From: Bacteroidota bacterium
GTDB lineage: Bacteria > Bacteroidota > Bacteroidia > Bacteroidales > FEN-979
Direction of reading: 5' to 3'
Assembly (NCBI GenBank): GCA_026391775.1
Contig: JAPLDK010000007.1
Span: 1,065 to 65,064, forward strand
Length of the DNA: 64,000 nt
In this document: positions 22,735-64,000 of the stretch, piece by piece
How the letters are laid out: each line of letters opens with the position of its first letter
Position numbering within the stretch: position 1 is the first letter of the stretch
Translations under genes and position numbers: made by a program
Notes under the pieces: model-generated
What the model was told of the DNA's origin: nothing
Seen by the model: the letters and a program-made list of their open reading frames with translations, nothing else
Databases searched by the model: none

Positions 22735-23817
22735 TCAGGAATAGGAATATTTCATCATATAGGCTTTTAATTCAGTCTTGATAGCTGTTTTATCATTCTC
22801 TGACAATGAAAAACTGTTTTTCTTGAAGTTGCAGTTAATGGCCATGTATTCCCTTATTTTACTCTCCTGGCGTTCAGAAAATATTAGTCCCAATGCCGAA
22901 TAAATCTGTTTTACGGTCATTACCGGATCATTCTCCAGGTCTTCGAACCGGGTTTCAGCATAAACCCCTGCCGGCAATGTATGCGTTTCGGCACTGATCT
23001 TCTCCATTATAAGGTTAATTACCCTGCATATCTCCGCAATGTTATATTTATGAAGCTCATTGTTCAGGTTATTCTCCTTCTGAAGAATCTCCCACATATT
23101 TATAGTAGATGGAACTACAGAAAACGGATGCCTGTATATCTGAATGAACCTGGCCTTGGGAAAAACCTCAAGAAGCAACCTGATCCTTAATGAATGGAAT
23201 GGGTTTTTAGAGAGGATGATGCCTTTTTGATTATAACCTACTTTGGTAAAAAAGGATTTCAACTGTTCTTTGAGGACTTCGTTTGCTTTGAACGAATTCA
23301 CCTTCTTTACCCATTCCTCTATGAAATAGCGTTCGCTACTTGGAAACAGCAGTTGTTCAAGAGGCGAATAGCCTGTAAGTCTGAAAACTGCATATTCGTC
23401 CTCCTGGGGTTCATCCATTCCTATTTTTACATTATCCATAGGCCTGGTTTCCCTGACGAGGGCTTTCATTATTGGTTTATAATAGGCATGAGAAATAAGC
23501 ATACTGTCAGGTTCAGCAACCTGAAACAAGGTAGGGGCTTTGAACTGTTCATCCAGACTCATCAGTTTAAACAATAAAGTAGTACCTGTGCGCCAGTGTC
23601 CGATAATAAAGACTGGATCCACAGGGCATGGCATTGTTTTAAGACGCTTGCCGTAACGTATATTTTCAATGGAGGCAAAAAGGCTTGACCATGCCGAACT
23701 TTGCAATAAAAAGAGAATTCTCCCTAAACTTCTGGGATTCCAGCTTATTTTATTCCTGGACAGGATACTTATCAGCCGGCCGGATGACATCCCGGCAGTT
23801 ATGTAAGAATGTTTCAA
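22735..23817 (-). CDS. Sulfotransferase family protein
   Basis: 360 aa. PAPS 5'-phosphosulfate loop-like IIGHWRTGTTLLFKLM and 3'-phosphate motif-like QIYRHPFSVVPS. Confidence 0.7.
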   Translation of the reverse strand: MKHSYITAGMSSGRLISILSRNKISWNPRSLGRILFLLQSSAWSSLFASIENIRYGKRLKTMPCPVDPVFIIGHWRTGTTLLFKLMSLDEQFKAPTLFQVAEPDSMLISHAYYKPIMKALVRETRPMDNVKIGMDEPQEDEYAVFRLTGYSPLEQLLFPSSERYFIEEWVKKVNSFKANEVLKEQLKSFFTKVGYNQKGIILSKNPFHSLRIRLLLEVFPKARFIQIYRHPFSVVPSTINMWEILQKENNLNNELHKYNIAEICRVINLIMEKISAETHTLPAGVYAETRFEDLENDPVMTVKQIYSALGLIFSERQESKIREYMAINCNFKKNSFSLSENDKTAIKTELKAYMMKYSYS

Positions 23818-24124: not shown

Positions 24125-25132
24125 TTAATTAATAGTTTTTGACAATCGTTTAAAAAAGTCCTCTTCCAAACCGGCCCTCTGGTAAAGAAGGTCGCTCATC
24201 TGTTTGAATTTATCAGGGCCAAGGTCACGGTTCTTGCCGATCTTTGCTGCAAAAAGTGAGAATTCCCGCCAGCCGTCGCCGATCTCCATAAGTTCTCTTG
24301 CAAAATCTTTCAGTTCGGGTTTGTTTATAATCTCAGATGCCTGCTGAAGAAACGTAGCATACATGAAACGGAATCCCGCTCCACCGGTTCCCTGGTCCTC
24401 GAGAAGAATATTGATCTTCATGACCTCATGTGACAGATGCTCAGTATCTCTGGCAATAGCAGGCCACTCGGTTATTTTTTTAGCAAACAGCTTCATCCCT
24501 TTGATGCCAAGAAAGGGAATGGGTAAACTTAACATGTAAAAGCATGCCTTTTTTATTCCCTTGCGGATGGCTTTATCGTAATCGAAGGTCTCAGGAACGT
24601 ATCTTGGATAAAAAATAGAGCCTTTCGGGGACATGCTCCCCTGGGCGAACCTGCCTTTGTTCATCGATTCGACCGGAAGGTCAACAAGCTTGGGAAAGTA
24701 AGAGTCGCTTACTTTATAAACATCCCCTTCTTTACCAATCGCCACAATGAAATGCACATTTATATGGACGCGTTCCCAGGAAGGCACATAATCCAGATAA
24801 AACATATCGACCTGAGTGGCTGTGGGAATCCCCTTTGAAATAAGCAGGTCAAGTGCTTCCTGGCCTGCTGTCTGGTTTTTGAAATCCTTTGTGAAAAACT
24901 TTACACCAGTCCTTTTTTCAAGATTTTTTCTCATTTGACCAGGTTTGTTCCTGACAATGAAAGTAGGGAAAGCAAAGGATTTCATTTTATGAAAATAACC
25001 GAAAAAGATTCCGCTGGAGATCCCGAATATCATGGGTTCGGTGATCTTCATCCCGGCATGGTTAAGTAAAGAAGTAATGGATCCCGATTCACAATGGGCC
25101 GCCATTTTATGCTGATAATTCTCTATAATCAT
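24125..25132 (-). CDS. BtrH_N-like / DUF4872 two-domain protein (papain-like fold, putative ACP-dependent acyltransferase or hydrolase)
   Basis: The N-terminal AAHCESGSITSLLNHAGMKITEPMIFGISSG pattern matches the butirosin BtrH N-terminal family as I remember it. The C-terminal half (GTGGAGFRFMYATFL) is paralogous to 63468..64000. Start moved to the ATG at 25132. Confidence 0.6.
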   Translation of the reverse strand: MIIENYQHKMAAHCESGSITSLLNHAGMKITEPMIFGISSGIFFGYFHKMKSFAFPTFIVRNKPGQMRKNLEKRTGVKFFTKDFKNQTAGQEALDLLISKGIPTATQVDMFYLDYVPSWERVHINVHFIVAIGKEGDVYKVSDSYFPKLVDLPVESMNKGRFAQGSMSPKGSIFYPRYVPETFDYDKAIRKGIKKACFYMLSLPIPFLGIKGMKLFAKKITEWPAIARDTEHLSHEVMKINILLEDQGTGGAGFRFMYATFLQQASEIINKPELKDFARELMEIGDGWREFSLFAAKIGKNRDLGPDKFKQMSDLLYQRAGLEEDFFKRLSKTIN

Positions 25133-25136
25133 TTCT

Positions 25137-25532
25137 TTATTTTCTGTTTCCTGATTGCCTTCCTGCAACCTCTTCCACCGAAACGTTGAACACTACAGAG
25201 TATTTTTTTAGTGCAGATTCATTGATCCTGGAAAAATTGCCCGGTTTAAGATGCTTTCTTACGATCCACTTCATAATCCCAGCACGTGCCGCAAGTTCTG
25301 AAATAGTAAGGTCTTCCAGTATCATATAATACTCAATGGCATTAATCTCACCTTTTTCTATCCTCTCCCGGAGAGCCTTTTCCAGGTTACGCCGTTTGAA
25401 AAAGTAATCGTCAATATAATTAGCTGAAAGGTAGGAGCCGGTTTGCATGGCCCCATACTTTCCGTCCTCCTTTTCCACATACAGTATTACCTGCTGTTCA
25501 GGGCATTCAGAATATCCATCCTTTTCTTTCAT
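25137..25532 (-). CDS. Hypothetical protein with C-terminal helix-turn-helix-like segment
   Basis: 131 aa. LTISELAARAGIMKWIVRKHLKPGNFSRI resembles an XRE-type HTH. No confident family. Confidence 0.4.
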   Translation of the reverse strand: MKEKDGYSECPEQQVILYVEKEDGKYGAMQTGSYLSANYIDDYFFKRRNLEKALRERIEKGEINAIEYYMILEDLTISELAARAGIMKWIVRKHLKPGNFSRINESALKKYSVVFNVSVEEVAGRQSGNRK

Positions 25533-43201: not shown

Positions 43202-44122
43202 TCACGTCGTCACATTATCACGGATTAAGGTATTCCAGTTCACAAACTTCCCTGCACCGGGAATAAACTTAGAATTCTTCCGTAATGCCTGTGAGGGGCC
43301 GCATTCCGTGAAAAGGCGTATGCCTGAGCTGAACATCTGCACCTGGGTTGCCAGCCAGTTAAAGGGGTTATGGATATTATTCACGACCTCCATTCTTGCT
43401 CTTTCCGCATTAATTATCAGGTTCTGGCTGAGCGCTGAGATGATTGGGATTTCCGGAGCCCGGACTTCTGCAGTATAGACTGTTTCTGATAATTTTATTG
43501 CCGCTTCCGACAACAGGTTTGTATGATAGGGCACAGTCACTCCCAATGACCTTGCATGAAGGGCCCCTTCTTCCCTGGCTTTCAATAGGAAAACATTAAT
43601 GTGAAAACTATTGCCTGCCACAGTAAAAGAATAATCGCTGTTGCGGTTGACGATCATCAGATTCAGATTGTGCTGTCCTGCTATATCCCTGATGTCTTTT
43701 TCGCTCAGGCCTATCACACCCCCCATGCCGTACTGGCCGTGCGGGAGGACTTTCCTGATTGCTTCATAGGCTTTCTGAATAAAAAGCAATCCGGTTTCAA
43801 ATGAAATAGAGCCGGCTGTGTAAAGGGAAGCATAGATTCCCATGCTGTAACCTGCGGTCATGGCCGGCTTAACCCCTGATTTCATAAGGATCCCGGCACA
43901 ACTGCAGCCATAGATGTATGAAATGTACTGGTTTCGAAGTTCATCCTGCAGCATAGGATTTGATTCCGGATGAAATGAAAGCAATTCTTTGTCAACTGAA
44001 TCAGCCGCCCTTGAAAGATAAGCCTGAAAAACTTTCGAAAAACCAAGAACCCCGTGGGAAGGGTCATCCCGGTGGTCACTAATAAAAGCAGGAAAAACGA
44101 AAGCAATTGTATCTTCTGCCAA
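43202..44122 (-). CDS. Divergent FabD-like acyltransferase (malonyl-CoA:ACP transacylase family)
   Basis: 306 aa. Nucleophile elbow GYSMGIYASL (GHSxG with H to Y), VNRNSDYSFTVAG and VPYHTNLL. The N-terminal FPAFISD replaces FPGQGSQ. Confidence 0.65.
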   Translation of the reverse strand: MAEDTIAFVFPAFISDHRDDPSHGVLGFSKVFQAYLSRAADSVDKELLSFHPESNPMLQDELRNQYISYIYGCSCAGILMKSGVKPAMTAGYSMGIYASLYTAGSISFETGLLFIQKAYEAIRKVLPHGQYGMGGVIGLSEKDIRDIAGQHNLNLMIVNRNSDYSFTVAGNSFHINVFLLKAREEGALHARSLGVTVPYHTNLLSEAAIKLSETVYTAEVRAPEIPIISALSQNLIINAERARMEVVNNIHNPFNWLATQVQMFSSGIRLFTECGPSQALRKNSKFIPGAGKFVNWNTLIRDNVTT

Positions 44123-44130
44123 ATGCGGAA

Positions 44131-44439
44131 TTATTTATCCAGTTCCAGCAGCCGGTTTTCGTGTTCGATGATCAGCATCTGCATCTCAATCAACTGGCCT
44201 ATGGTATCAACAGGATGTTTAACAGCATATTTGCCGATGGTTTTCAGTTCAATATCGAGATTGTATTTCTTTTTGAAGATCTCTATCAGTTCGAGGAACA
44301 TCAGCGAATCCCCATCCAGGTCCTTGATAATATTTGTGTTATCGGTGATCTGTGATTTATCTGCCTCACATTCTTCAGCAAAGAACGCAAAGACAATCTC
44401 TCTGACTTCATTCCGGGTGCTCTCTGTGATTTTTGCCAT
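44131..44439 (-). CDS. Acyl carrier protein (with C-terminal extension)
   Basis: Phosphopantetheine site DLDGDSLMFLELIEIF. Start set at the ATG at 44439 (MAKITESTRNEV), which leaves a 25-nt gap after the KS. The ORF-track start overlaps the KS. Confidence 0.75.
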   Translation of the reverse strand: MAKITESTRNEVREIVFAFFAEECEADKSQITDNTNIIKDLDGDSLMFLELIEIFKKKYNLDIELKTIGKYAVKHPVDTIGQLIEMQMLIIEHENRLLELDK

Positions 44440-44464
44440 TTCGAGTGTTTTTTTTGCAAAAGTA

Positions 44465-45688
44465 TTAATTTCCGGGATATTTTCTAAATACCAGGGTGGC
44501 ATTATGGCCTCCAAAGCCGAAGGAATTTGAAAGTGCAACATGTATTTCCTTCTGCCTACTCACGTTGGGGACATAATCCAGGTCAAGGTCGGGATCGGGA
44601 TCAGAATAATTAATTGTTGGAGTAAGGATGTTGTTTTTCAGGCTCAGAATTGTGATGATCCCTTCAATAGCTCCTGCAGCCCCAATTGTGTGGCCAATCA
44701 TTGATTTGGATGAAGACACAGGGATATGATAAGCCTGCTCGCCAAAAACTTTTTTAATTGCCATGGTCTCATACCGGTCGTTGAGTTCGGTCGAGGTTCC
44801 ATGAGCATTGAGGTAACCTACTTCGCTTTTATCAACACCTGCGTTCTGTAATGCTTTTTCAATTGTAGCTGCCATTCCTGCACCGTCTTTCATAGGGGCC
44901 ATAATGTTATATCCCTCGCTGGTCAGGGCATAGCCTGCCAGCTCGCTATGAATGATTGCATTTCTCATGAGAGCATGTTCTTCCGATTCAAGGATTACCA
45001 CTCCGGCCCCTTCACCTATGACAAACCCATCCCGTTTTGATGTAAAAGGCCTGCTTGCAGCTTCGGGTGGGTCATTGGCAACTGACAATGCATATAAGGC
45101 GTTAAAACCGTTTATTTCCTCAGGGTTGATGATGGAATCGGCTCCTCCGGCGATGACAACATCAACCATATTGTTTTTAATCATCTGCATGCCAATTGCA
45201 ATGGCATAGGCTGAAGATGCACAGGCTGTATTGATTGCAAAATTTGGGCCGAGAAGTTGGTATTCAAGTGATATCCATGCAGGCATGGAGTTGGTCATGC
45301 TTTTGAATACCGTGTTCTGGGGGGAAGTGTCTTTTTCTACGCTGGAATTCCCTGTATTTACCACTCCCATAATGACAGCACAACGTGTCTTATCCTCTTT
45401 CTCAAAATCCAGTCCGGAAAGGGTAACAGCCTGTTTTGCTGCGACCAGACACATCCTGGTAACCCTGGTCATTTGCCCGGCTGCACGCTTTTTGACGAGG
45501 CACCTTGAATATTCTTCAAATTCATGAGGTACTTCAGCGGCAATCTGAGTTGCACAGGAAGAGGCGTTAAAAAGGGATATCTTTTTTACACCGCTTTTGC
45601 CTTCAACAAGGTTTTTCCAGAACGTTTCTAAATCATAACCAAGGGATGATACAATGCCCATCCCACTAATAACTACTTTTCCAGCCAT
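44465..45688 (-). CDS. Beta-ketoacyl-ACP synthase (FabF/KAS II-like)
   Basis: 407 aa. Cys-His-His triad contexts INTACASSAYAIAIG, LNAHGTSTELND and SMIGHTIGAAGAIE. Confidence 0.9.
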   Translation of the reverse strand: MAGKVVISGMGIVSSLGYDLETFWKNLVEGKSGVKKISLFNASSCATQIAAEVPHEFEEYSRCLVKKRAAGQMTRVTRMCLVAAKQAVTLSGLDFEKEDKTRCAVIMGVVNTGNSSVEKDTSPQNTVFKSMTNSMPAWISLEYQLLGPNFAINTACASSAYAIAIGMQMIKNNMVDVVIAGGADSIINPEEINGFNALYALSVANDPPEAASRPFTSKRDGFVIGEGAGVVILESEEHALMRNAIIHSELAGYALTSEGYNIMAPMKDGAGMAATIEKALQNAGVDKSEVGYLNAHGTSTELNDRYETMAIKKVFGEQAYHIPVSSSKSMIGHTIGAAGAIEGIITILSLKNNILTPTINYSDPDPDLDLDYVPNVSRQKEIHVALSNSFGFGGHNATLVFRKYPGN

Positions 45689-45697
45689 CCTCAGAGA

Positions 45698-46120
45698 TTA
45701 ATTATTCAGTGCCTTGGCCCAGTTTTTAATCAGGTCAACCTCAGCCTGGGTGGGAATATTGCCAGGGTTATTCTTACGCCATTTTCCCGGTGGCATTGAC
45801 CCTTTTGAAACCTTTTTGCTGATGTCATTTGCTTTGTCGGCCTGTCTTTTAGTGTCGTAAGTATTCCAACTGGAAAAGTTGACACGCATTTTAGCCATGC
45901 TGTTTCCGTCTGCACCATGACAATCCATGCAGGCTTTTTGTATGATTTTCGCCACTGAATCCGGAAGTTCGGGGTTCCCTTCGGCATATTTTACTGAACC
46001 GGATGCGTTTACAGGCCTGAAAGCCAGGACCAGAAAGAACACCACTGCAAATGATATCCATAGAAATGCACTTGTTTTTCTCATAAATTTCATGTTAATG
46101 CTTAAAACAAAAATACGCAC
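45698..46120 (-). CDS. Small secreted haem-binding-domain protein (single CXXCH)
   Basis: 140 aa. Has a signal/anchor (FLWISFAVVFFLVLAF). CMDCHG is followed by VNFSSWNTY, as in the 'haem-binding domain' family of small c-type proteins. The start may be the ATG at 46093. Confidence 0.6.
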   Translation of the reverse strand: MRIFVLSINMKFMRKTSAFLWISFAVVFFLVLAFRPVNASGSVKYAEGNPELPDSVAKIIQKACMDCHGADGNSMAKMRVNFSSWNTYDTKRQADKANDISKKVSKGSMPPGKWRKNNPGNIPTQAEVDLIKNWAKALNN

Positions 46121-46122
46121 AA

Positions 46123-48699
46123 TTATTCAAAGGGGCCTAATTCTGTTCCAAAATATTCTTTCAATGCCTCATTAAGTTCATCAATGGTTAGGCCCGAATG
46201 AGTGATAAACCTCCGGGCTGCATTTTTATATGTGAACTCCAAATGATTTCTTAATTCTTCGATTTTCTCAGGTACAGCTGCCGCTGGATTTCTTTCGGTT
46301 GCATTTCCGGAATAATCATAAAAGCCACGGCCCGACTTCCTGCCAAGATGACCTTCGGAAATCAGTTTTTTAAGTTTGCTGATGAGAGGAGTATAGTATT
46401 CGGCATGGGGGTATTTGACCGTATAATTTGTTATGCTCCTTAGCATGGTATCAAGGCCTACATGGTCAAAGAACTCAAAGACACCGGCAGGGAAGAGCGT
46501 TCCCTTCACGGCCTGGTCAATTTCGCTGCATGTTGCCTGGCCCTGATCGACAATACGGTAGGCCTCATTCTGCACATCGAGGAAAATACGGTTGAGAATA
46601 AAGCCCTCCTCTTCGGTCAACAGAATAAATCTGCGTTTGATTGTATCGAGAAAAACAATCAGCTTTTCAACGGTATTACCGGAAGTGCCCGGCCCCCTGA
46701 TAATCTCCACAATGTTTACCAGGTTTACAGGATAAAAGAAATGAAGTCCTGCAAATTTTTTTTCCCTTGCTTTAGATGGGCAAAGGACCGAAGGATTGAT
46801 CGAAGATGAGTTGGTAACAAGGATTGCATCCGGATGTAATATTGTATCTGCTTGAGCGAGAACCTTCTTCTTGAGCTCCTCGTCCTCGGTGATGGCTTCT
46901 ATAACAAGCGTACAGCCGGACAAAGCTGATATCTCAGGAGAAATTACAGTTAGTTTAAGCTTATCGTATTTCGCTTCTGATATTATACCGTTCTCAAGGA
47001 GTCTTCTGGTCTTTTTTTCAATGTTCTTGCGGATCTTCGCCAAATCGGCCTGGGAACTGACGACCCACCGGATATCAAGGCCTGATTCAATAAAATAATG
47101 AGCAAGGTTTGTTCCCATCTTACCTTCCCCGATAATACCAACTGTTGCTGCTTTCATAAGTTGTTGATTCCACTTCCCCATATCTTGCGCTATCACCAGT
47201 TTGCGGTATTCATCCATCCTGAGGTGATGCTGGCGTATATGCCTGTTGTAACCCAGCATGGACAGGATAAAGCCCAGGCCTTTGTCAATGGCGATCTGTT
47301 TCGCACGGATAAGATTGAACATGAAGATGAACAGGGCTTTGCGGTCCTTATCGGATGTGAGAATAAACTCTTTGAAAGTTATCCAGGAAAGACGGGCCTT
47401 AATCCAAACGGGGATATTGCCTCCGGGCCTCGTAAAAGCCCCGTTGCTGAAAAGAGCTTCAGCTTTCTTTCTGATAACAGGGAAAGAATACAAGCGGGTG
47501 ATTGTTTCCATGTATTTGTCGAAGATCTCGATCTGAGACATGTTCATGTATTGAATAGTAGGGAAGTGGCCTACTCCCATTTCCGGATCGCAGTTCATGA
47601 GCCTTCCTTCCGCCTTCAGTTTCTTATTGGTTTCGGTGCCAGGAGGAGCATTTAACAGGTGAAGGTTTACATTCGGAAGATTATGTTCCAGGGTAAAGTT
47701 GAAAATCCGCTCAAACTCATCCGCAGTATCATGATCAAATCCGACTACAAAACTTGCATTAATCTGTATACCCGCTGCATGTATTTTACTTATGGCTTCC
47801 TTGTAAATAGACCCACCCCGGTTGTGATGTTTCCGTGTTTCGTCAAGACTGTCACGATTCAAAGATTCAAACCCAACCAGGATGTTAAAACAGCCGGCAT
47901 CCGCCATAAGTTGTAAAAGTTCGTCATCGGTAGCCACATCCAGGCTGCACATGCAGCCCCATGAAATGTCCAGGGGTTTGATAGCCTTCATCAGTTCCTT
48001 GGCATAGCGTTTATTAATAGTCAGGTTGTCATCAACAAAAAAGAAATATTTTGAAGGAGCGGCTTTGATTTCATCCACCACATTAGCAATCTCGCGGTAC
48101 CTCATTTTACGGCCGAAATTCTTGGAGACAAGGCAGAAATCACAGTTAAACGGGCAGCCTCTTGAAACTTGTATTGCCACCTGGAAAATCCTCTTCATGT
48201 TAACCAGGTCCCAGCGGGGTGGTTTTTGATGGTGGTATTCGGTGTATGTTGTGGATTCGTATACCTGTTTAAGTTCTCCTTTCTCAAAATCGGCAAGGCA
48301 TTGTTCCCATTTACCTTCAGCTTCACCAACAACAACTGCGTCTCCGTGTTTCAGGGCCTCATCGATAACAAAGGAGGCATATGGCCCTCCGTAGACCACT
48401 TTAGCCCCCATGGAGCGGTAATGGTCTCCAAGTTCGAAAGCCCGCTTCGCTGTGGCTGCCAGGGTCGTGATGCCAACAATATCGGGCCGGATACCTGAAG
48501 GAATATCCTCTATCTCTTCATCATAAATCGAGATCCTGTAATGAGTGGGGGTAAGCGAAGCAATTGTCGGGAGTGCGAGGGGCACCATGAAACGTTTCTT
48601 CCCGAACATTCTTGCCATTTCAGAATGAGCAGGATAGTTGATATACTTCTGTCTAGGGCCTAATAGAAAAAGATTATATTTTGGTTTCTCTTCAGACAT
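46123..48699 (-). CDS. Fusion: cobalamin-binding-domain radical SAM + 3-hydroxyacyl-CoA dehydrogenase (Hbd/HADH-type)
   Basis: 858 aa. The N-terminal half has IVGITTLAATA...VVYGGPYAS (B12-like) and QVSRGCPFNCDFCLVS (CX3CX2C). From about nt 47160 downward there is VGIIGEGKMGTNLAHYF (NAD Rossmann) and GLHFFYPVNLVNIVEIIRG (the HFFNP-type HADH signature), plus the C-terminal HADH helical domain. Confidence 0.8.
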   Translation of the reverse strand: MSEEKPKYNLFLLGPRQKYINYPAHSEMARMFGKKRFMVPLALPTIASLTPTHYRISIYDEEIEDIPSGIRPDIVGITTLAATAKRAFELGDHYRSMGAKVVYGGPYASFVIDEALKHGDAVVVGEAEGKWEQCLADFEKGELKQVYESTTYTEYHHQKPPRWDLVNMKRIFQVAIQVSRGCPFNCDFCLVSKNFGRKMRYREIANVVDEIKAAPSKYFFFVDDNLTINKRYAKELMKAIKPLDISWGCMCSLDVATDDELLQLMADAGCFNILVGFESLNRDSLDETRKHHNRGGSIYKEAISKIHAAGIQINASFVVGFDHDTADEFERIFNFTLEHNLPNVNLHLLNAPPGTETNKKLKAEGRLMNCDPEMGVGHFPTIQYMNMSQIEIFDKYMETITRLYSFPVIRKKAEALFSNGAFTRPGGNIPVWIKARLSWITFKEFILTSDKDRKALFIFMFNLIRAKQIAIDKGLGFILSMLGYNRHIRQHHLRMDEYRKLVIAQDMGKWNQQLMKAATVGIIGEGKMGTNLAHYFIESGLDIRWVVSSQADLAKIRKNIEKKTRRLLENGIISEAKYDKLKLTVISPEISALSGCTLVIEAITEDEELKKKVLAQADTILHPDAILVTNSSSINPSVLCPSKAREKKFAGLHFFYPVNLVNIVEIIRGPGTSGNTVEKLIVFLDTIKRRFILLTEEEGFILNRIFLDVQNEAYRIVDQGQATCSEIDQAVKGTLFPAGVFEFFDHVGLDTMLRSITNYTVKYPHAEYYTPLISKLKKLISEGHLGRKSGRGFYDYSGNATERNPAAAVPEKIEELRNHLEFTYKNAARRFITHSGLTIDELNEALKEYFGTELGPFE

Positions 48700-48716: not shown

Positions 48717-49859
48717 TCAGAATTGACGCCAGCTCATGACATATCCGGCTTGCATGAACTTGCTGACTTCCGTGACAAAGCTGAGTACGATGTCCTTATC
48801 GACCAGTTTTTCTTCTTTTAAAATCCTATCGAGGCATAAAAATGCCATTGGTGGGCCCAAGTATCCCATAGCCGACATTTTTGAATACAAGGTATAGCGC
48901 GGTATGCCCAACCCGGCACACTCATCCATGACAAGCTCCGAGATATGTTTTGAGGGAAAGTTAACCTGGAAAAACCTGATAGCTTCCATATCGACAGGGT
49001 GTTGCTTTAACATGCGTTTTAAGCCGTTCAGGAATACCGACCCGTCCGGCTCATGAAAATTCTGTCGCAATTCCTCCTGGAACATCTGGGCAAGGTGGTG
49101 ATAGCCTTTCTCATATTCTTCCTTTGGATTCATCCAGTAAGCAGGCCGTTTGTTACCCATGGCCGAAGGTTTGTTTCCACCCACCGATTCCATATAGACA
49201 TGTTCAACATACAGTCCGTTTGCCTTTTCGGGTGCTGCTTTCAGGAAGAGAGCAGAAGCCCCGTCCGAGAGAAAATATCTCAGGAACAACTCTTCTTTGG
49301 TTACCAGGGGCTGGTTGTAATATTCTGCAACAAGTTCCGAAGATGACATGCTGGACGAGATTACCAGGGCATTGTCATAACGGCCATGCCGGATCATGTC
49401 AGAAGCAACAAGCAGTGACTTATAGGCAGATGTACAGTTGGCATGAATGGAGAGCTCTCCGCAATGTTCAATCCCGAGACCTTCCTGTATTCTCACCGAA
49501 GCTGTCGGCATCTGGTCCTGGTGTGCGCTGCCATAAACAATAAGCTGAACATCTTTAGGTGTCATTCCTGCAACCTGAAGTGCCTGCTCTGCAGCTTTGA
49601 CCGACATACTCACATTATCTTCTGTAAACTTTCTGCTGACCGGGTCCAGCGCAAAATGGTAATATTCGACTTCAAGCAGTTCAGCCATCAGTCCCCTTAT
49701 TCTTTGAAGCCATTTTCGTATCTTGAGGGGAGCTTCGGTGAGTTCGCCAAGATAATAATCGACTTCCGTCTTGGGAACCGGCTTTCCAGGTAGGAATGAA
49801 CCGCTTCCGGTAACCATTACAGCCCTATGAAATATATAATTTGTATTATGTTCTTTCAC
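48717..49859 (-). CDS. Thiolase-fold KAS III-like enzyme with atypical catalytic residues
   Basis: 380 aa. Cys context SIHANCTSAYKSLLVASDMIRHG. By eye, the positions that align with FabH HQAN and GNTSAAS read FFQVN and SAMGYLGPP. This suggests the His/Asn of the decarboxylative triad are not conserved. Confidence 0.6.
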   Translation of the reverse strand: MKEHNTNYIFHRAVMVTGSGSFLPGKPVPKTEVDYYLGELTEAPLKIRKWLQRIRGLMAELLEVEYYHFALDPVSRKFTEDNVSMSVKAAEQALQVAGMTPKDVQLIVYGSAHQDQMPTASVRIQEGLGIEHCGELSIHANCTSAYKSLLVASDMIRHGRYDNALVISSSMSSSELVAEYYNQPLVTKEELFLRYFLSDGASALFLKAAPEKANGLYVEHVYMESVGGNKPSAMGNKRPAYWMNPKEEYEKGYHHLAQMFQEELRQNFHEPDGSVFLNGLKRMLKQHPVDMEAIRFFQVNFPSKHISELVMDECAGLGIPRYTLYSKMSAMGYLGPPMAFLCLDRILKEEKLVDKDIVLSFVTEVSKFMQAGYVMSWRQF

Positions 49860-50545
49860 GAAAGATATTTCTTGATATATAATGCCCTCTTTTCGACCCT
49901 GAAATCCTGCATCACCTCCTTTGCAAAATCGCTTGAAGTGGAAAGCAACGCTTTTTTGGGAACTACCTTATCAACGATCCTGTATTTCATGGCGTCTATT
50001 GATGTGAATGTGCTTCCCTTCAGCACACGTTCAAGGGCAAGAGCCTGTCCTGATATACAACACAGTTTGTAGATCCCGCCCAAGCCGGGGACAAGGTTGA
50101 AAGAGGCTTCCGGGAGGCCAAAAACTGCATCTTGTCCACAAAGCCTGAAGTGGCTGAACAGGGCGAGCTCCAGAGCCGAACCGAGGCAAACCCCACGTAT
50201 GGCAGAGATCACAGGGATTCTAAAGCTTTCAAGCATCAGCAGGGATTTATAATTATTGGAAAGAAAATCGGGCACTTTCGTCAACCTGCCTTTTTTATCA
50301 GTCTCGGCTTTATCAAGAATTTCCCTCAAAAGAACCGGCACATCGGCACCTGAAGAAAAATGTCTTCCGTGTCCACTTATAATCAGAGCACGAAACGCAT
50401 GGTGATTCTTTACAAATTCCAACACCGATGTGAATTCCGTGAAGAATTCCATGGTCATGGCATTCGAAGGCGGGGTATTCAGTTCCAACTGTCCTATCCC
50501 TTCTTCAAGGACTAAGCGAATTGTTGAATAATCAGGTATCTTCAT
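49856..50545 (-). CDS. Enoyl-CoA hydratase/isomerase (crotonase) family protein
   Basis: 229 aa. Oxyanion-hole pattern GHGRHFSSGADV and FGLPEASFNLVPGLGGI. Has ATGA-type overlaps on both sides. Confidence 0.75.
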   Translation of the reverse strand: MKIPDYSTIRLVLEEGIGQLELNTPPSNAMTMEFFTEFTSVLEFVKNHHAFRALIISGHGRHFSSGADVPVLLREILDKAETDKKGRLTKVPDFLSNNYKSLLMLESFRIPVISAIRGVCLGSALELALFSHFRLCGQDAVFGLPEASFNLVPGLGGIYKLCCISGQALALERVLKGSTFTSIDAMKYRIVDKVVPKKALLSTSSDFAKEVMQDFRVEKRALYIKKYLS

Positions 50546-51303
50546 TTCTGTATCTCCCGGGAACCATTCCTCCTTTTGGCCTCAGCAAGTGCCAGCTCGC
50601 AGAACATCCTGGTTTCCTCTTTCATAGCCTCTTCGATACTAAGGGATCTGGCGTTTTTCAAAGCCTTCATTACCGCATTGATAACAGGTAAAGGCCTGTC
50701 CCTGGTCAGTTTCTGCAAGAGGTTGAAGGAAAAATCAAATACCTTCTGTTTACTTACAATAAAATCCACGAGGTGCATCTCCTGTGCGTCCTCTGCATTG
50801 ATCATATCACCGCTCATGATGAGTTTCATCGCTTTTGGGAAACCGGTTTTTCCAAAACACCTGACGGTTCCTCCCAAACCGGGTATGACACCATGGTTGA
50901 TCTCGGGGAAAGCAAATAAGGCATTTTCGGAGCAGACCCTGATGTGACTGGAAAGAGCAACCTCCAGCCCCCCTCCGAAACAAATGCCCTGGATTGCTGC
51001 AACTACGGGTATTTCTAAATTTTCAAGATGTTCAAGCACAGCTTTCCCTTTCTCCATGCTCTCAGTAATGTTCTCCTTGTCTCGGATCATTTTGAACAGG
51101 TTCTCAAGCTTGCCGCCACCCGAGAAATGTTTTCCCGCACCACATATTATGATTCCTTTCAGGTAATCATAGGAGGTCCATTTTTTAAGGGTTTCAAGTG
51201 GTACAAATCCCGGCTGAACTAGATAGTTTTCAGGGGGATTGTCAAGTGTTATAATCCCAATATCACCTCTGATCTCCCAGCTTATTTTATCGATTGTTTC
51301 CAT
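50542..51303 (-). CDS. Enoyl-CoA hydratase/isomerase (crotonase) family protein
   Basis: 253 aa. GAGKHFSGGGKL and FAFPEINHGVIPGLGGT. Confidence 0.75.
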   Translation of the reverse strand: METIDKISWEIRGDIGIITLDNPPENYLVQPGFVPLETLKKWTSYDYLKGIIICGAGKHFSGGGKLENLFKMIRDKENITESMEKGKAVLEHLENLEIPVVAAIQGICFGGGLEVALSSHIRVCSENALFAFPEINHGVIPGLGGTVRCFGKTGFPKAMKLIMSGDMINAEDAQEMHLVDFIVSKQKVFDFSFNLLQKLTRDRPLPVINAVMKALKNARSLSIEEAMKEETRMFCELALAEAKRRNGSREIQK

Positions 51304-51317
51304 TCAGTTTTAAATAA

Positions 51318-51707
51318 TTATAAAGTGAATACAGGCTCAATGCGGGAAGGGATATCATGGGAGATCCTCTGGACATCCACGAATACAGTCTTAACCCTTG
51401 CCCTGGCAACGGCCTGCCCTCCCGGCACAAGCCTCATCCTCTGTTCAAAAATAATAAACGGCTCATCTTTCTTTACTGCTGTAATGATTTCCACTTCATC
51501 GCCAAGCCTTACTTCATGCTGGTAACGTATATTAACCTCAACAACAACCAGGAACAGGCCCTGGATGGTAAGCTGATCAAGCAAGCCTTTGTTTTGGAAC
51601 AACTCCCAGCGGGCTTGTTCAAAATAATTGAAAAATACAGCATTGTTTACATGTCCATATGAATCCAGTTCATATCCTCTTGCGGTGATCCTGCTTTGAT
51701 ACATCAA
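51318..51707 (-). CDS. Hotdog-fold acyl thioesterase (4HBT/YbgC-like)
   Basis: 129 aa. YELDSYGHVNNAVFFNYFEQARWELF is the 4HBT signature region. Confidence 0.75.
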   Translation of the reverse strand: MMYQSRITARGYELDSYGHVNNAVFFNYFEQARWELFQNKGLLDQLTIQGLFLVVVEVNIRYQHEVRLGDEVEIITAVKKDEPFIIFEQRMRLVPGGQAVARARVKTVFVDVQRISHDIPSRIEPVFTL

Positions 51708-62715: not shown

Positions 62716-63468
62716 TTAATCTCTTAGGTCCTTACCTGTAAGATGCAGGAAAATGTTTTCAAGGTCCTTGAACTCCGGATGTTCTGCGACAAGTTCGTGT
62801 GGATTTCCCATGGAAATGACTCTGCCCCGGTCAATTATAGCAACGCGTGTGCAGAGTCTCTCTGCTTCCTCCATATAATGCGAGGTATAGATTACAGTAG
62901 TACCCTTCTGGTTTAGTTCTTTAAGATATTCCAGGATAACAACCCTTGACTGAACATCTATACCGACGGTGGGCTCATCCAGAAAAATCACTTTGGGGTC
63001 ATGCAACAGGCCTGCGATCAGGTTGATCCTGCGTTTAATTCCACCCGAACAGTTTGCTATTTTTTTATCTGCATGTTTTTCCAGTCCAAAAACAGCCATC
63101 CCTTCAGCAATTTTCTGCTTCAGGCTTGCGCCTTTGAGGCCGTACATATTGCCGAAGAAAGTGAGATTCTCCCAGGCTGTCAGGGTAGGATAGAGGGCGA
63201 CATCCTGAGGTACCACTCCGATGATTTTCTTTATTTCATTGAGGTTTGAATGAATATCCATACCGTCAATCCTTGCACTTCCCTTGGTGGCCCGAAAGAG
63301 GCCGCATAAAATAGAAATAGTGGTTGTTTTGCCGGCACCATTCGGACCAAGCAATCCGAAGATCTCCCCCTGAAAAATATCAAGAGAGATCCCTTTGATA
63401 GCGGGTTCTTCTGATCCTTTATAAACTTTAACCAGTTCCCTTATTTCTATAATGACCTTATCTGACAT
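62716..63468 (-). CDS. ABC transporter ATP-binding protein
   Basis: 250 aa. Walker A GLLGPNGAGKTTT, signature CSGGIKRRINLIAGL and Walker B VIFLDEPTVGID. Confidence 0.93.
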   Translation of the reverse strand: MSDKVIIEIRELVKVYKGSEEPAIKGISLDIFQGEIFGLLGPNGAGKTTTISILCGLFRATKGSARIDGMDIHSNLNEIKKIIGVVPQDVALYPTLTAWENLTFFGNMYGLKGASLKQKIAEGMAVFGLEKHADKKIANCSGGIKRRINLIAGLLHDPKVIFLDEPTVGIDVQSRVVILEYLKELNQKGTTVIYTSHYMEEAERLCTRVAIIDRGRVISMGNPHELVAEHPEFKDLENIFLHLTGKDLRD

Positions 63469-64000
63469 CAGATTTTAACTTTTCCAATTTGCTTGAATAC
63501 CTGCTCCTCCATCCCTGCGATTTCCATCATCATATCTCCCAATGTTCCATAATCCTCAACAGGCTGTGATGACCTGTTCTTGCAATTTCTGGCACCAAGG
63601 TAAGTAAATTCCCTCCATTTATTGGCTGTACGGCCCATAAGATCGGCAGCATCAAGAATCTCCTTATTGTTAAATGTCTCTCCACTTTCCTTGAGAAACG
63701 AACCAAAGATATATCGGAAACCTGCGCCGCCGGTACCAAAATCCTCAGCCATCCTCAGTATCTGCCCAAGGTAAAATGCTGCTTTCTGGTTGCCATGTTT
63801 TTTAGGCCACTTTTTGATATCCCTGGCCATCACACGCATTCCTTTAATCCCGATGAGCCAGAATGGAACCTTAGTCATTTCATATACGCTTTTTTTGATC
63901 CCCAACTGCACACCGGTCCGGATATCCAGTTCTTTTGGCACATTGTTAATCCAGTACATTTTCCCCTTTGGAGCGAAAGGCCCTTTGGCCCAGCGAACTC
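63468..64000 (-). CDS. BtrH_N/DUF4872-like protein, partial (5' end beyond the window end)
   Basis: The ORF-track M at 63959 is internal. The frame stays open to the window edge (hand translation ...VRWAKGPFAPKGKMYWINNVPKE). The region aligns by eye with the C-terminal half of 24125..25132 (GTGGAGFRYIFGSFL versus GTGGAGFRFMYATFL; LIGIKGMRVMARDIKKWP versus FLGIKGMKLFAKKITEWP). Confidence 0.65.
   Translation of the reverse strand, partial: VRWAKGPFAPKGKMYWINNVPKELDIRTGVQLGIKKSVYEMTKVPFWLIGIKGMRVMARDIKKWPKKHGNQKAAFYLGQILRMAEDFGTGGAGFRYIFGSFLKESGETFNNKEILDAADLMGRTANKWREFTYLGARNCKNRSSQPVEDYGTLGDMMMEIAGMEEQVFKQIGKVKI

Follow-up and report, generated by a model that had tools for sequence, protein, structure and literature searches.

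Enzymes with the 3-oxoacyl-(acyl carrier protein) synthase III (KAS III) fold, such as FabH, DarB/StlD, MxnB/CorB, OleA and CerJ, are a well-studied source of new C–C and C–O bond chemistry. Within the thiolase-fold systems that cooperate with crotonases, DpgA, DpgB and DpgD yield 3,5-dihydroxyphenylacetyl-coenzyme A (CoA) for glycopeptide antibiotics. DpgA makes a resorcinol thioester together with the crotonase-type dehydratases DpgB and DpgD, as stated in PMC3849588. For a DarB, the best substrate pair comprised the N-acetylcysteamine (SNAC) thioesters 3-oxo-decanoyl-SNAC, as one partner, and, as the other, dec-2-enoyl-SNAC (PMC13748660). Here, we analysed a window (the whole stretch of 64,000 nucleotides from contig JAPLDK010000007.1 of a Bacteroidales bacterium of the FEN-979 lineage, assembly GCA_026391775.1), in which positions 48717–51303 are filled by three minus-strand open reading frames (ORFs) of the ORF list. 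These encode two crotonases of the enoyl-CoA hydratase (ECH) family, termed ECH_A and ECH_B, and a KAS III-like protein. The trio is the core of a conserved, self-contained and previously undescribed lipid or polyketide-type cassette, and the KAS III-like protein, judged by its sequence, belongs to an unnamed family that is the sister of DarB/StlD and not part of it.

The active site of the KAS III-like protein was assigned by alignment. Residues C112, H244 and N274 of Escherichia coli K-12 FabH (b1091) aligned with C142, N300 and Y333, respectively; we take this FabH numbering to be the usual one, and the sequence contexts around the residues were checked. The best sequence match in the PDB was StlD (5gk0; E 1.8e-12, residues 14–371 aligned), of which His302, the residue mutated in the H302A entry 5gk2, aligned with N300 and the Gly-Asn pair with Gly-Tyr333, while the Cys was retained. 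Both His and Asn occupy these StlD columns in 14/14 DarB-like representatives. An earlier note, made from the letters of the window, had picked out the motifs HANCTSAY, FFQVN and SAMGYLGPP, which are found at residues 139, 296 and 329, and had suspected a non-canonical triad; this is borne out with respect to FabH and StlD alike, since the Cys is kept (C142), the catalytic His has become Asn (N300) and the Asn has become Tyr (Y333). Given that His and Asn are both absent, FabH-type decarboxylative condensation appears unlikely for this protein. It shares with FabH the thiolase fold, the position of the Cys and Foldseek template-modelling (TM) scores of ~0.70–0.73, and differs in the replacement of H244 and N274 and in being ~60 residues longer. 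A separate FabH-like gene is found on contig C49 of the same genome.

A maximum-likelihood tree was computed by a quick search under LG+G4 and rooted on E. coli FabH, with two rows of odd composition included. The clade of the KAS III-like protein (SH-aLRT 93) joined the DarB/StlD clade (100) at a node with a value of 99, which left the FabH-like proteins outside. The motif LRWxLSDGAGA is common to the KAS III-like clade and the DarB-like proteins and absent from the FabH-like ones. Among 35 aligned full-length representatives, 13, the window protein among them, group in a clade whose Asn position reads Gly-Tyr and whose His position is Asn in the nearer members and Ser, Thr, Asp or Gly in the outer ones. 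Residues E135, N141, C142, K147, R194, D199, H254, H255, Q258, Y333, E364, S366 and K367 were invariant in the clade alignment. The same 13 residues and N300 were invariant in 80/80 homologues of full length, taken from 80 loci across about a dozen phyla, an invariance that for N141, C142, E364, S366 and K367 is partly by construction because these lie within the peptide patterns of the locus search, whereas H254, H255, Q258, N300, Y333, R194, D199, E135 and K147 lie outside the patterns and are unbiased. The family-specific motif H254-H255-x-x-Q258 aligns with FabH residues 203–207, which presumably line the acyl pocket and the pantetheine tunnel, and is absent from the DarB-like and FabH-like rows displayed in the alignment. 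One clade member among the 35 representatives, P0159, carries Asp at the Cys, Arg at the His and His at the Tyr position, and may be a degenerate or re-purposed copy to judge from these substitutions.

An AlphaFold2 model of the KAS III-like protein, built from 13 family members, was confident, with a predicted local distance difference test (pLDDT) value of 89.6 and a predicted TM (pTM) score of 0.91. Foldseek with this model returned StlD chains first (5gk0, TM 0.83), followed by AbyA1, PqsD, FabH, OleA, BioZ, CorB and MxnB, with TM ~0.70–0.76 for FabH, PqsD and OleA. The best NCBIfam match was the StlD/DarB family NF005293, at 109.3 bits against a cut-off of 450; the 14 DarB-like representatives scored 324–526 bits on this model, eight of them over the cut-off and six at 324–445. 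Lower scores were obtained with DarB NF053539 (83.9 bits, cut-off 550) and FabH TIGR00747 (65.1 bits, cut-off 292.1, N-terminal part only matched), as well as with the 3-hydroxy-3-methylglutaryl (HMG)-CoA synthase models TIGR01835 (23.6 bits, cut-off 360.35) and NF003274 (31.1 bits, cut-off 244), which matched only ~100 N-terminal residues. Thiolase TIGR01930 gave 21.8 bits (cut-off 240.55) and Pfam Thiolase_N 20.1 bits (cut-off 26.4). Thus, none of the curated cut-offs of the NCBIfam models of StlD/DarB, DarB, FabH, HMG-CoA synthase and thiolase was reached, and a classical thiolase identity is excluded by the family scores. The ESM Atlas yielded generic "3-oxoacyl-ACP synthase III" clusters only. 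Entries with DpsC or CerJ in their titles were absent among the best 60 of 72 PDB sequence matches (E <= 1) and among the Foldseek matches listed, and the His-containing triad of the DpsC/CerJ type is not present, the His position being Asn.

The family is large. A word-index search retrieved 1184 relatives, the best 120 of which are 72–88% identical, come from metagenome-assembled genomes (MAGs) of Bacteroidota and are named merely KAS III family proteins, and an exhaustive search of 50%-identity representatives gave 687 matches, 34 of them at E <= 1e-30. Scanning 185,579 species genomes with two peptide patterns derived from a 5-row alignment revealed 357 places that encode KAS III-like relatives, largely in lineages that are anaerobic as judged by their names; the cross-phylum counts of residues and gene contexts rest on the best 80 of these loci. 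The record titles of these 80 include Desulfobacterota (several families), Myxococcota, Nitrospirota/Thermodesulfovibrionia, Spirochaetota, Leptospirales, Chloroflexota, Methylomirabilia, Aminicenantes, Planctomycetaceae, Lentisphaerales, Calditrichaceae, Bacillota and Gammaproteobacteria, along with many Bacteroidales. The Gammaproteobacteria include a carrier that is in culture, the purple sulfur bacterium Thiococcus pfennigii strain Pfennig 8320 (L088, NZ_NRRW01000005.1); its family member is 42% identical to the window protein by tblastn and lies within 10 kb of FabF, FabD, acyl carrier protein (ACP), 3-hydroxyacyl-CoA dehydrogenase (HADH) and several ECH genes. Among 401 genomes sampled evenly from the window's order, 24 carried an orthologue, at 62–75% identity, including 4/4 of the window's family. 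An even phylum sample (401 genomes, only seven others of the order) contained no orthologue besides the window's own, and the next-best matches, at <=202 bits, were DarB-like or FabH-like proteins by length and score. No description of the family or of the cassette was found in the literature searched, which did not extend to subscription journals.

The conserved parts of the cassette are a thioesterase, ECH_A, ECH_B, the KAS III-like protein, often a B12-binding radical S-adenosylmethionine enzyme (B12-rSAM), HADH, a FabF-like ketosynthase (KS), an ACP and a FabD-like acyltransferase (AT). In 12/12 Bacteroidales loci examined, the genes follow one another as thioesterase–ECH_A–ECH_B–KAS III-like, and the arrangement is therefore not a matter of chance; rSAM and/or HADH genes followed or lay near the unit in 10/12 of these loci and FabF in 8/12. 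Gene contexts across phyla were tallied at those 47 of the 80 loci whose two flanks each span 5 kb or more, using tblastn with the window proteins (E <= 1e-8), a procedure that may miss divergent small proteins. ECH genes were near the KAS III-like gene in 42/47 loci, with at least two in 34/47, and HADH was within 10 kb in 38/47. The corresponding counts were 37/47 for FabF, 32/47 for ACP, 30/47 for FabD, 28/47 for the thioesterase and 27/47 for B12-rSAM.

Three distant cassette loci, from Deltaproteobacteria, Bacillota and Thermodesulfovibrionia, were scanned with Pfam. The cassette of the Deltaproteobacteria MAG stands alone between unrelated genes and runs KS, KAS III-like, ECH, ACP, KS, a 318-aa protein without a Pfam match that is related to FabD by tblastn, and HADH, followed by FtsX, a LolA-like gene and ECH. 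In its second KS, the active Cys is replaced by Ser and one His by Asn, as in a chain-length factor, so this cassette may, from these residues, use a KS/chain-length-factor pair. The Bacillota version comprises B12-rSAM, a flavin adenine dinucleotide (FAD) oxidase, a cytidine diphosphate (CDP)-alcohol phosphatidyltransferase, a phosphopantetheinyl transferase (PPTase) and a type II thioesterase, the last three of which come after the cassette (Table 1); these neighbours hint that the product is incorporated into phospholipid. The Thermodesulfovibrionia MAG cassette is flanked by a type III polyketide synthase (PKS) of the chalcone/stilbene synthase family and an acetoacetate-decarboxylase-like gene.

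Both crotonases look like ordinary hydratases or dehydratases equipped with both catalytic glutamates. Their best NCBIfam match was PRK07658 (ECH_A 159.5 and ECH_B 123.7 bits; cut-off 313), and neither reached any NCBIfam equivalog cut-off. The best PDB match was 3pea (1.7e-27 and 6e-24, respectively), and rat ECH 1dub was matched at 2e-21 and 6e-19. The Glu pair is present within GGGLE and FPE of ECH_A and SALE and LPE of ECH_B, all aligned to the same motifs of 3pea, and presumably corresponds to Glu144 and Glu164 of rat ECH. In homologues from the 80 loci, these glutamates were conserved in 62/63 ECH_A-type proteins each, and in 49/54 and 54/54 ECH_B-type proteins. The short-chain enoyl-CoA hydratase model PRK05809 scored 121.4 and 90.0 bits. 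Scores for the polyketide ECH model NF005496 (81.3 and 96.1 bits vs 215) and the DpgD model NF042430 (83.6 and 90.3 bits vs 400) were below those of generic hydratase models, and CurE, CurF and PksI chains were absent among the 60 best PDB matches of each crotonase, which were ordinary ECH-family entries throughout. ECH_B is short at the C-terminus, with profile positions 3–195 of 251 matched and ~25–30 residues missing, so that it is devoid of the last helical part of ordinary crotonases; ECH genes of similar length are present in distant cassettes (223 aa in L097). An intact Cys-His-Asn triad combined with crotonases of the ordinary kind had been named in the earlier note as the outcome that would speak against its proposals. 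The comparison with FabH revealed no intact triad, whereas scores and PDB matches did place the crotonases with ordinary hydratases.

The coordinates of the cassette genes and of further features are listed in Table 1. Transcription runs from ECH_A through ECH_B to the KAS III-like gene, which is the last of the three; the title of the earlier note had followed the plus-strand order. The proposed coupling of a crotonase, a second crotonase and a thiolase-fold KAS III-like gene is upheld by stop/start overlaps of 4 bases at both junctions (ATGA between ECH_A and ECH_B; GTGA, with a GTG start, between ECH_B and the KAS III-like gene). The gaps are 14 bases between the thioesterase gene and ECH_A and 17 bases between the KAS III-like gene and that of the rSAM-HADH fusion. 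Downstream, the rSAM-HADH fusion, CXXCH protein, FabF-like KS, ACP and FabD-like AT are encoded as had been claimed. The hotdog thioesterase is the first gene of the conserved four-gene unit, and the HADH domain of the fusion is likely the keto-reductase or dehydrogenase partner of the crotonases. According to the alignment, the KS keeps the active-site Cys and both His. The ACP ORF as listed is probably too long at its 5' end. Neither an enoyl reductase nor an acyl-CoA ligase was seen in the cassette in Pfam and NCBIfam scans.

Table 1. Positions and supporting matches of the cassette genes and of other features mentioned in the text. Positions are those of the window unless preceded by a locus label (L005, past the 3' end of the window; L070, L097 and L099, distant cassette loci).
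Feature	Position	Strand	Supporting match
FabD-like acyltransferase of the cassette	43202-44122	-	Pfam Acyl_transf_1 43.7 bits; TIGR00128 112.7 vs 260.9
ACP of the cassette, 136-aa ORF, DSL at residue 78	44131-44541	-	Pfam PP-binding 28.8 bits
FabF-like KS of the cassette	44465-45688	-	TIGR03150 451.6 bits vs 493.75 cut-off
Small Haem_bd protein, one CXXCH (CMDCH at residue 64)	45698-46120	-	Pfam Haem_bd 50.0 bits
B12-binding radical SAM + HADH fusion	46123-48699	-	Pfam 3HCDH_N 142.4, 3HCDH 84.4, Radical_SAM 74.9 bits
KAS III-fold protein (P0001), 380 aa, GTG start	48717-49859	-	Pfam ACP_syn_III 29.0 bits, cut-off 24
ECH_B crotonase, 229 aa	49856-50545	-	Pfam ECH_1 109.7 bits, cut-off 27
ECH_A crotonase-fold enoyl-CoA hydratase/dehydratase, 253 aa	50542-51303	-	Pfam ECH_1 127.0 bits, cut-off 27
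Hotdog thioesterase (4HBT, YbgC/FadM-type)	51318-51707	-	Pfam 4HBT_2 70.7; TIGR00051 65.0 vs 68.7 cut-off
Sulfotransferase-family gene	22735-23817		Sulfotransfer_3 106.1 bits
First DarG/DarH pair	24125-25532
Second DarG/DarH pair	63468-63959, continuing into L005:33-1474
LPLAT-like/B12-rSAM fusion, 777 aa	L005:1939-4272		TIGR04072 398.8 bits vs 360
Second KS, Deltaproteobacteria MAG	L070:12299-13561
CDP-alcohol phosphatidyltransferase, PPTase and type II thioesterase, Bacillota MAG	L097:18563-20664
Type III PKS and acetoacetate-decarboxylase-like gene, Thermodesulfovibrionia MAG	L099:6739-7875, L099:16486-17262

The contig that holds the window is 173 kb long, and the genome, 3.19 Mb in size, is 90.7% complete. 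Hallmark flexirubin genes surround the trio, namely FlxY, LolA2, LolB2 and two DarG/DarH pairs, and FlxA and FlxB are located just past the end of the window. The two DarH proteins score 325.8 and 391.1 bits, both above the cut-off of 300, and the sulfotransferase-family gene is found between FlxY and the first DarH/DarG pair. A canonical DarB was not found in this genome at its 90.7% completeness, the best match of the DarB model being the KAS III-like protein itself (82.9 vs 550). In the window's lineage, the cassette sits inside a flexirubin-type cluster in which neither DarB nor, by a single query, DarA was found. A related genome, G616, carries in a row a lysophospholipid acyltransferase (LPLAT), a 329-aa ORF, DarB, a FabZ-like gene, DarG and DarH; the window's cluster has instead an LPLAT fused to a 'ladderane-type' B12-rSAM domain, and then the FabZ-like gene, DarG and DarH. 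This fusion occupies the place of the separate LPLAT, the 329-aa ORF and the true DarB of the related genome (L156). Models NF053538, NF053537 and NF053543 were tried for DarA and rejected as unrelated families. The earlier note considered such a cassette unusual for an aryl polyene (APE) or flexirubin-type cluster, and this agrees with the absence of such genes from the flexirubin clusters described so far: the main text on the Chitinophaga/Flavobacterium clusters (PMC3992019) contains none of the terms 'hydratase', 'crotonase', '3-hydroxyacyl' or 'radical SAM'.

We consider it possible, though somewhat short of probable, that 3-oxoacyl and 2-enoyl thioesters are both produced by the cassette itself and that the KAS III-like enzyme joins them without decarboxylation in a DarB-like manner. 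The reasons are the sister relationship to DarB/StlD, the retained Cys, and a constant set of companions in which KS, ACP, AT, HADH and crotonases are present and an enoyl reductase is not. In this scheme, KS, ACP and AT would extend an acyl primer to a 3-oxoacyl thioester, part of which HADH and one crotonase would convert, through the (S)-3-hydroxyacyl stage, to the 2-enoyl thioester, where it would remain as there is no enoyl reductase; these enzymes would thereby furnish the very pair that DarB uses. The KAS III-like enzyme would load one chain on Cys142 and join it head-to-head to the second, malonyl decarboxylation not being involved. The second crotonase and the thioesterase would then finish and free the product by dehydration and hydrolysis, comparable to the help that DpgB and DpgD give to DpgA. 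DarB/StlD, the ketosynthase-cyclases known from pathways to bacterial stilbenes, dialkylresorcinols and flexirubins, is the closest relative by the tree, by the fold, where it ranks first, and by NCBIfam, and belongs to the same length class. Both share LRWxLSDGAGA and the Cys, and the window enzyme stands in a flexirubin-type cluster beside putative makers of 3-oxoacyl and 2-enoyl chains.

A more specific version of this scheme appears unlikely when taken as one joint reading: the cassette would be an oxygen-independent route to a ring-bearing lipid (a cyclohexanedione, a resorcinol or another carbocycle), widespread in anaerobes of about a dozen phyla and served by a new catalytic set of Cys, Asn, Tyr and His-His. 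The second crotonase, and not an oxidising aromatase, would complete the ring by dehydration, the B12-rSAM enzymes would afterwards alkylate or rearrange it, and in DarAB-less flexirubin-type clusters the product would replace the dialkylresorcinol partner of the pigment. The Dpg system, in which a thiolase-fold enzyme and two crotonase dehydratases lead to a resorcinol thioester without oxygen (PMC3849588), resembles the cassette only in the way it works. DpgA belongs to the type III PKS enzymes and has its own triad, the window crotonases are not DpgD orthologues by their NF042430 scores, and DpgC and the transaminase are absent from the window cassette.

Several findings weigh against DarB-like joining. 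His and Asn of DarB/StlD are both replaced, and the chemistry may therefore differ from theirs; the invariant His-His-x-x-Gln is an addition, and the scores are far below the DarB/StlD cut-offs. To these must be added the built-in share of the 80/80 invariance mentioned above, and the lack of any characterised member of the clade in the literature searched. The 329-aa ORF of G616, which is DarA by position only and was the sole query for a DarA/StlC-type aromatase, matched nothing in the window's genome at E <= 0.001, so none was found beside the window enzyme by this query. A flexirubin or APE marker of any kind was present in only 20/47 well-flanked loci, and a pigment resorcinol can therefore not be the general role of the cassette. 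The chain-length-factor-like KS of the one Deltaproteobacteria cassette suits a type II PKS of the iterative kind, where KAS III-like proteins more usually act as primers. Finally, DarB, called at E <= 1e-40, was present in 50/401 genomes of the order sample (38 above the cut-off), and 10/24 carriers of the KAS III-like enzyme also have DarB; the co-occurrence counts were 10 for both, 14 for the KAS III-like enzyme only, 40 for DarB only and 337 for neither, among genomes that as kin are not independent. In the three of the ten double carriers that were inspected (G616, G705 and G689), DarB stands beside DarG and DarH, and the cassette is on another contig than DarB or ~600 kb distant. FlxA/FlxB next to DarB were seen only in G616, and KS, chain-length factor and ACP genes there in G616 and G705.

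The two enzymes are thus not mutually exclusive, and the idea of a general DarB replacement, with the KAS III-like enzyme as a simple substitute, was rejected. As they co-occur at separate places, the cassette has a function of its own. The 14/24 carriers without DarB include the window's whole family, and it is for DarAB-less clusters like the window's only that the cassette product is a possible pigment partner.

The main rival to DarB-like joining, which we rate as somewhat unlikely, is that the enzyme serves a type II PKS-like line by priming or acyl transfer. The KAS III-like protein would receive the starter acyl group at Cys142 from CoA and hand it to the ACP, the KS or an acceptor hydroxyl; the KS (paired in some phyla with a chain-length factor), ACP and AT, with HADH for keto reduction and the crotonases for dehydration, would then build a polyene or hydroxy lipid whose enoyl groups stay unreduced and which B12-rSAM enzymes would modify. 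The loss of the decarboxylation residues His and Asn next to an invariant Cys fits this; FabH variants without these two residues still self-acylate. Known initiation modules of type II PKS systems pair a KAS III homologue with an AT (ZhuH/ZhuC, DpsC/DpsD), and here too KAS III-like protein, AT, ACP and KS share one operon. The enzyme is accompanied by KS, ACP, AT, reductase and dehydratase as a full set, in which an enoyl reductase was not seen, and the chain-length-factor-like second KS in the Deltaproteobacteria cassette points the same way. Against a priming role, the nearest kin by tree and fold is the chain-joining DarB/StlD and not a priming KAS III, and ZhuH/DpsC enzymes are not among the nearest sequences or folds listed. 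ZhuH/DpsC-type enzymes keep a His-containing triad, and all priming KAS III enzymes known to us retain a His. In addition, the 14 invariant residues, including the new His-His-x-x-Gln, suggest chemistry beyond transfer, and the reductase and dehydratases of the window are of the beta-oxidation type (HADH, crotonase) and not of the FabG/FabZ type.

Reverse beta-oxidation at the CoA level, one of the two readings offered in the earlier note, is improbable. A thiolase-like, non-decarboxylative Claisen condensation of acyl-CoAs followed by HADH and the crotonases would produce a short 2-enoyl-CoA with which the KS and ACP would start. The reading is right in part, on its Hbd-like and Crt-like side: the HADH domain is nearest to 3-hydroxybutyryl- and 3-hydroxyacyl-CoA dehydrogenases (PRK08268 191.9 and PRK05808 189.0 bits, neither reaching its cut-off), PRK05809, a short-chain hydratase model, is matched by the crotonases, the thioesterase is of the acyl-CoA type by TIGR00051, and the loss of His and Asn agrees with a non-decarboxylative reaction. 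Its thiolase does not stand, since the KAS III-like enzyme is below the cut-offs of TIGR01930 and Thiolase_N. Furthermore, neither an enoyl-CoA reductase nor an acyl-CoA ligase was seen inside the cassette, which has its own KS, ACP and AT, and the two or more crotonases of 34/47 loci exceed the need of one round.

It is very improbable that the KAS III-like protein has no catalytic activity and acts, comparable to a chain-length factor, as a scaffold or partner subunit. Two of the three canonical catalytic residues are indeed lost, and P0159 even has Asp at the Cys position. However, Cys142 and the 13 other residues are invariant across about a dozen phyla, the best database matches are closely similar to the window protein, and the Cys is usually the first residue to be lost in dead subunits. 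The other reading of the earlier note, an analogue of the polyketide beta-branching cassette (PksG or another HMG-synthase-like enzyme, an ECH1 dehydratase and an ECH2 decarboxylase) that would install alkyl branches, has next to no chance despite its superficially similar content of one thiolase-fold protein and two crotonases near ACP and KS: it fails because HMG-CoA synthase and decarboxylase-type ECH are both lacking, the HMG-CoA synthase models being far below their cut-offs and no such synthase being among the Foldseek matches listed (nearest StlD, AbyA1, PqsD and FabH), while both crotonases score best on PRK07658, rank lower on NF005496, have no CurE, CurF or PksI among their 60 best PDB matches and retain the hydratase Glu pair that ECH2 decarboxylases, to our knowledge, do not possess.

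Taken as a sister of DarB/StlD, this large, strongly conserved family with its Asn/Tyr swap and invariant His-His-x-x-Gln would add a new kind of catalytic site to the KAS III fold. As the 357 places belong mostly to lineages with anaerobic names and are undescribed in the literature searched, the product may be a common, unrecognised lipid of anoxic habitats. The cassette may also explain what DarAB-less flexirubin-type clusters attach to their polyene, and the cultured carrier T. pfennigii makes the question testable.

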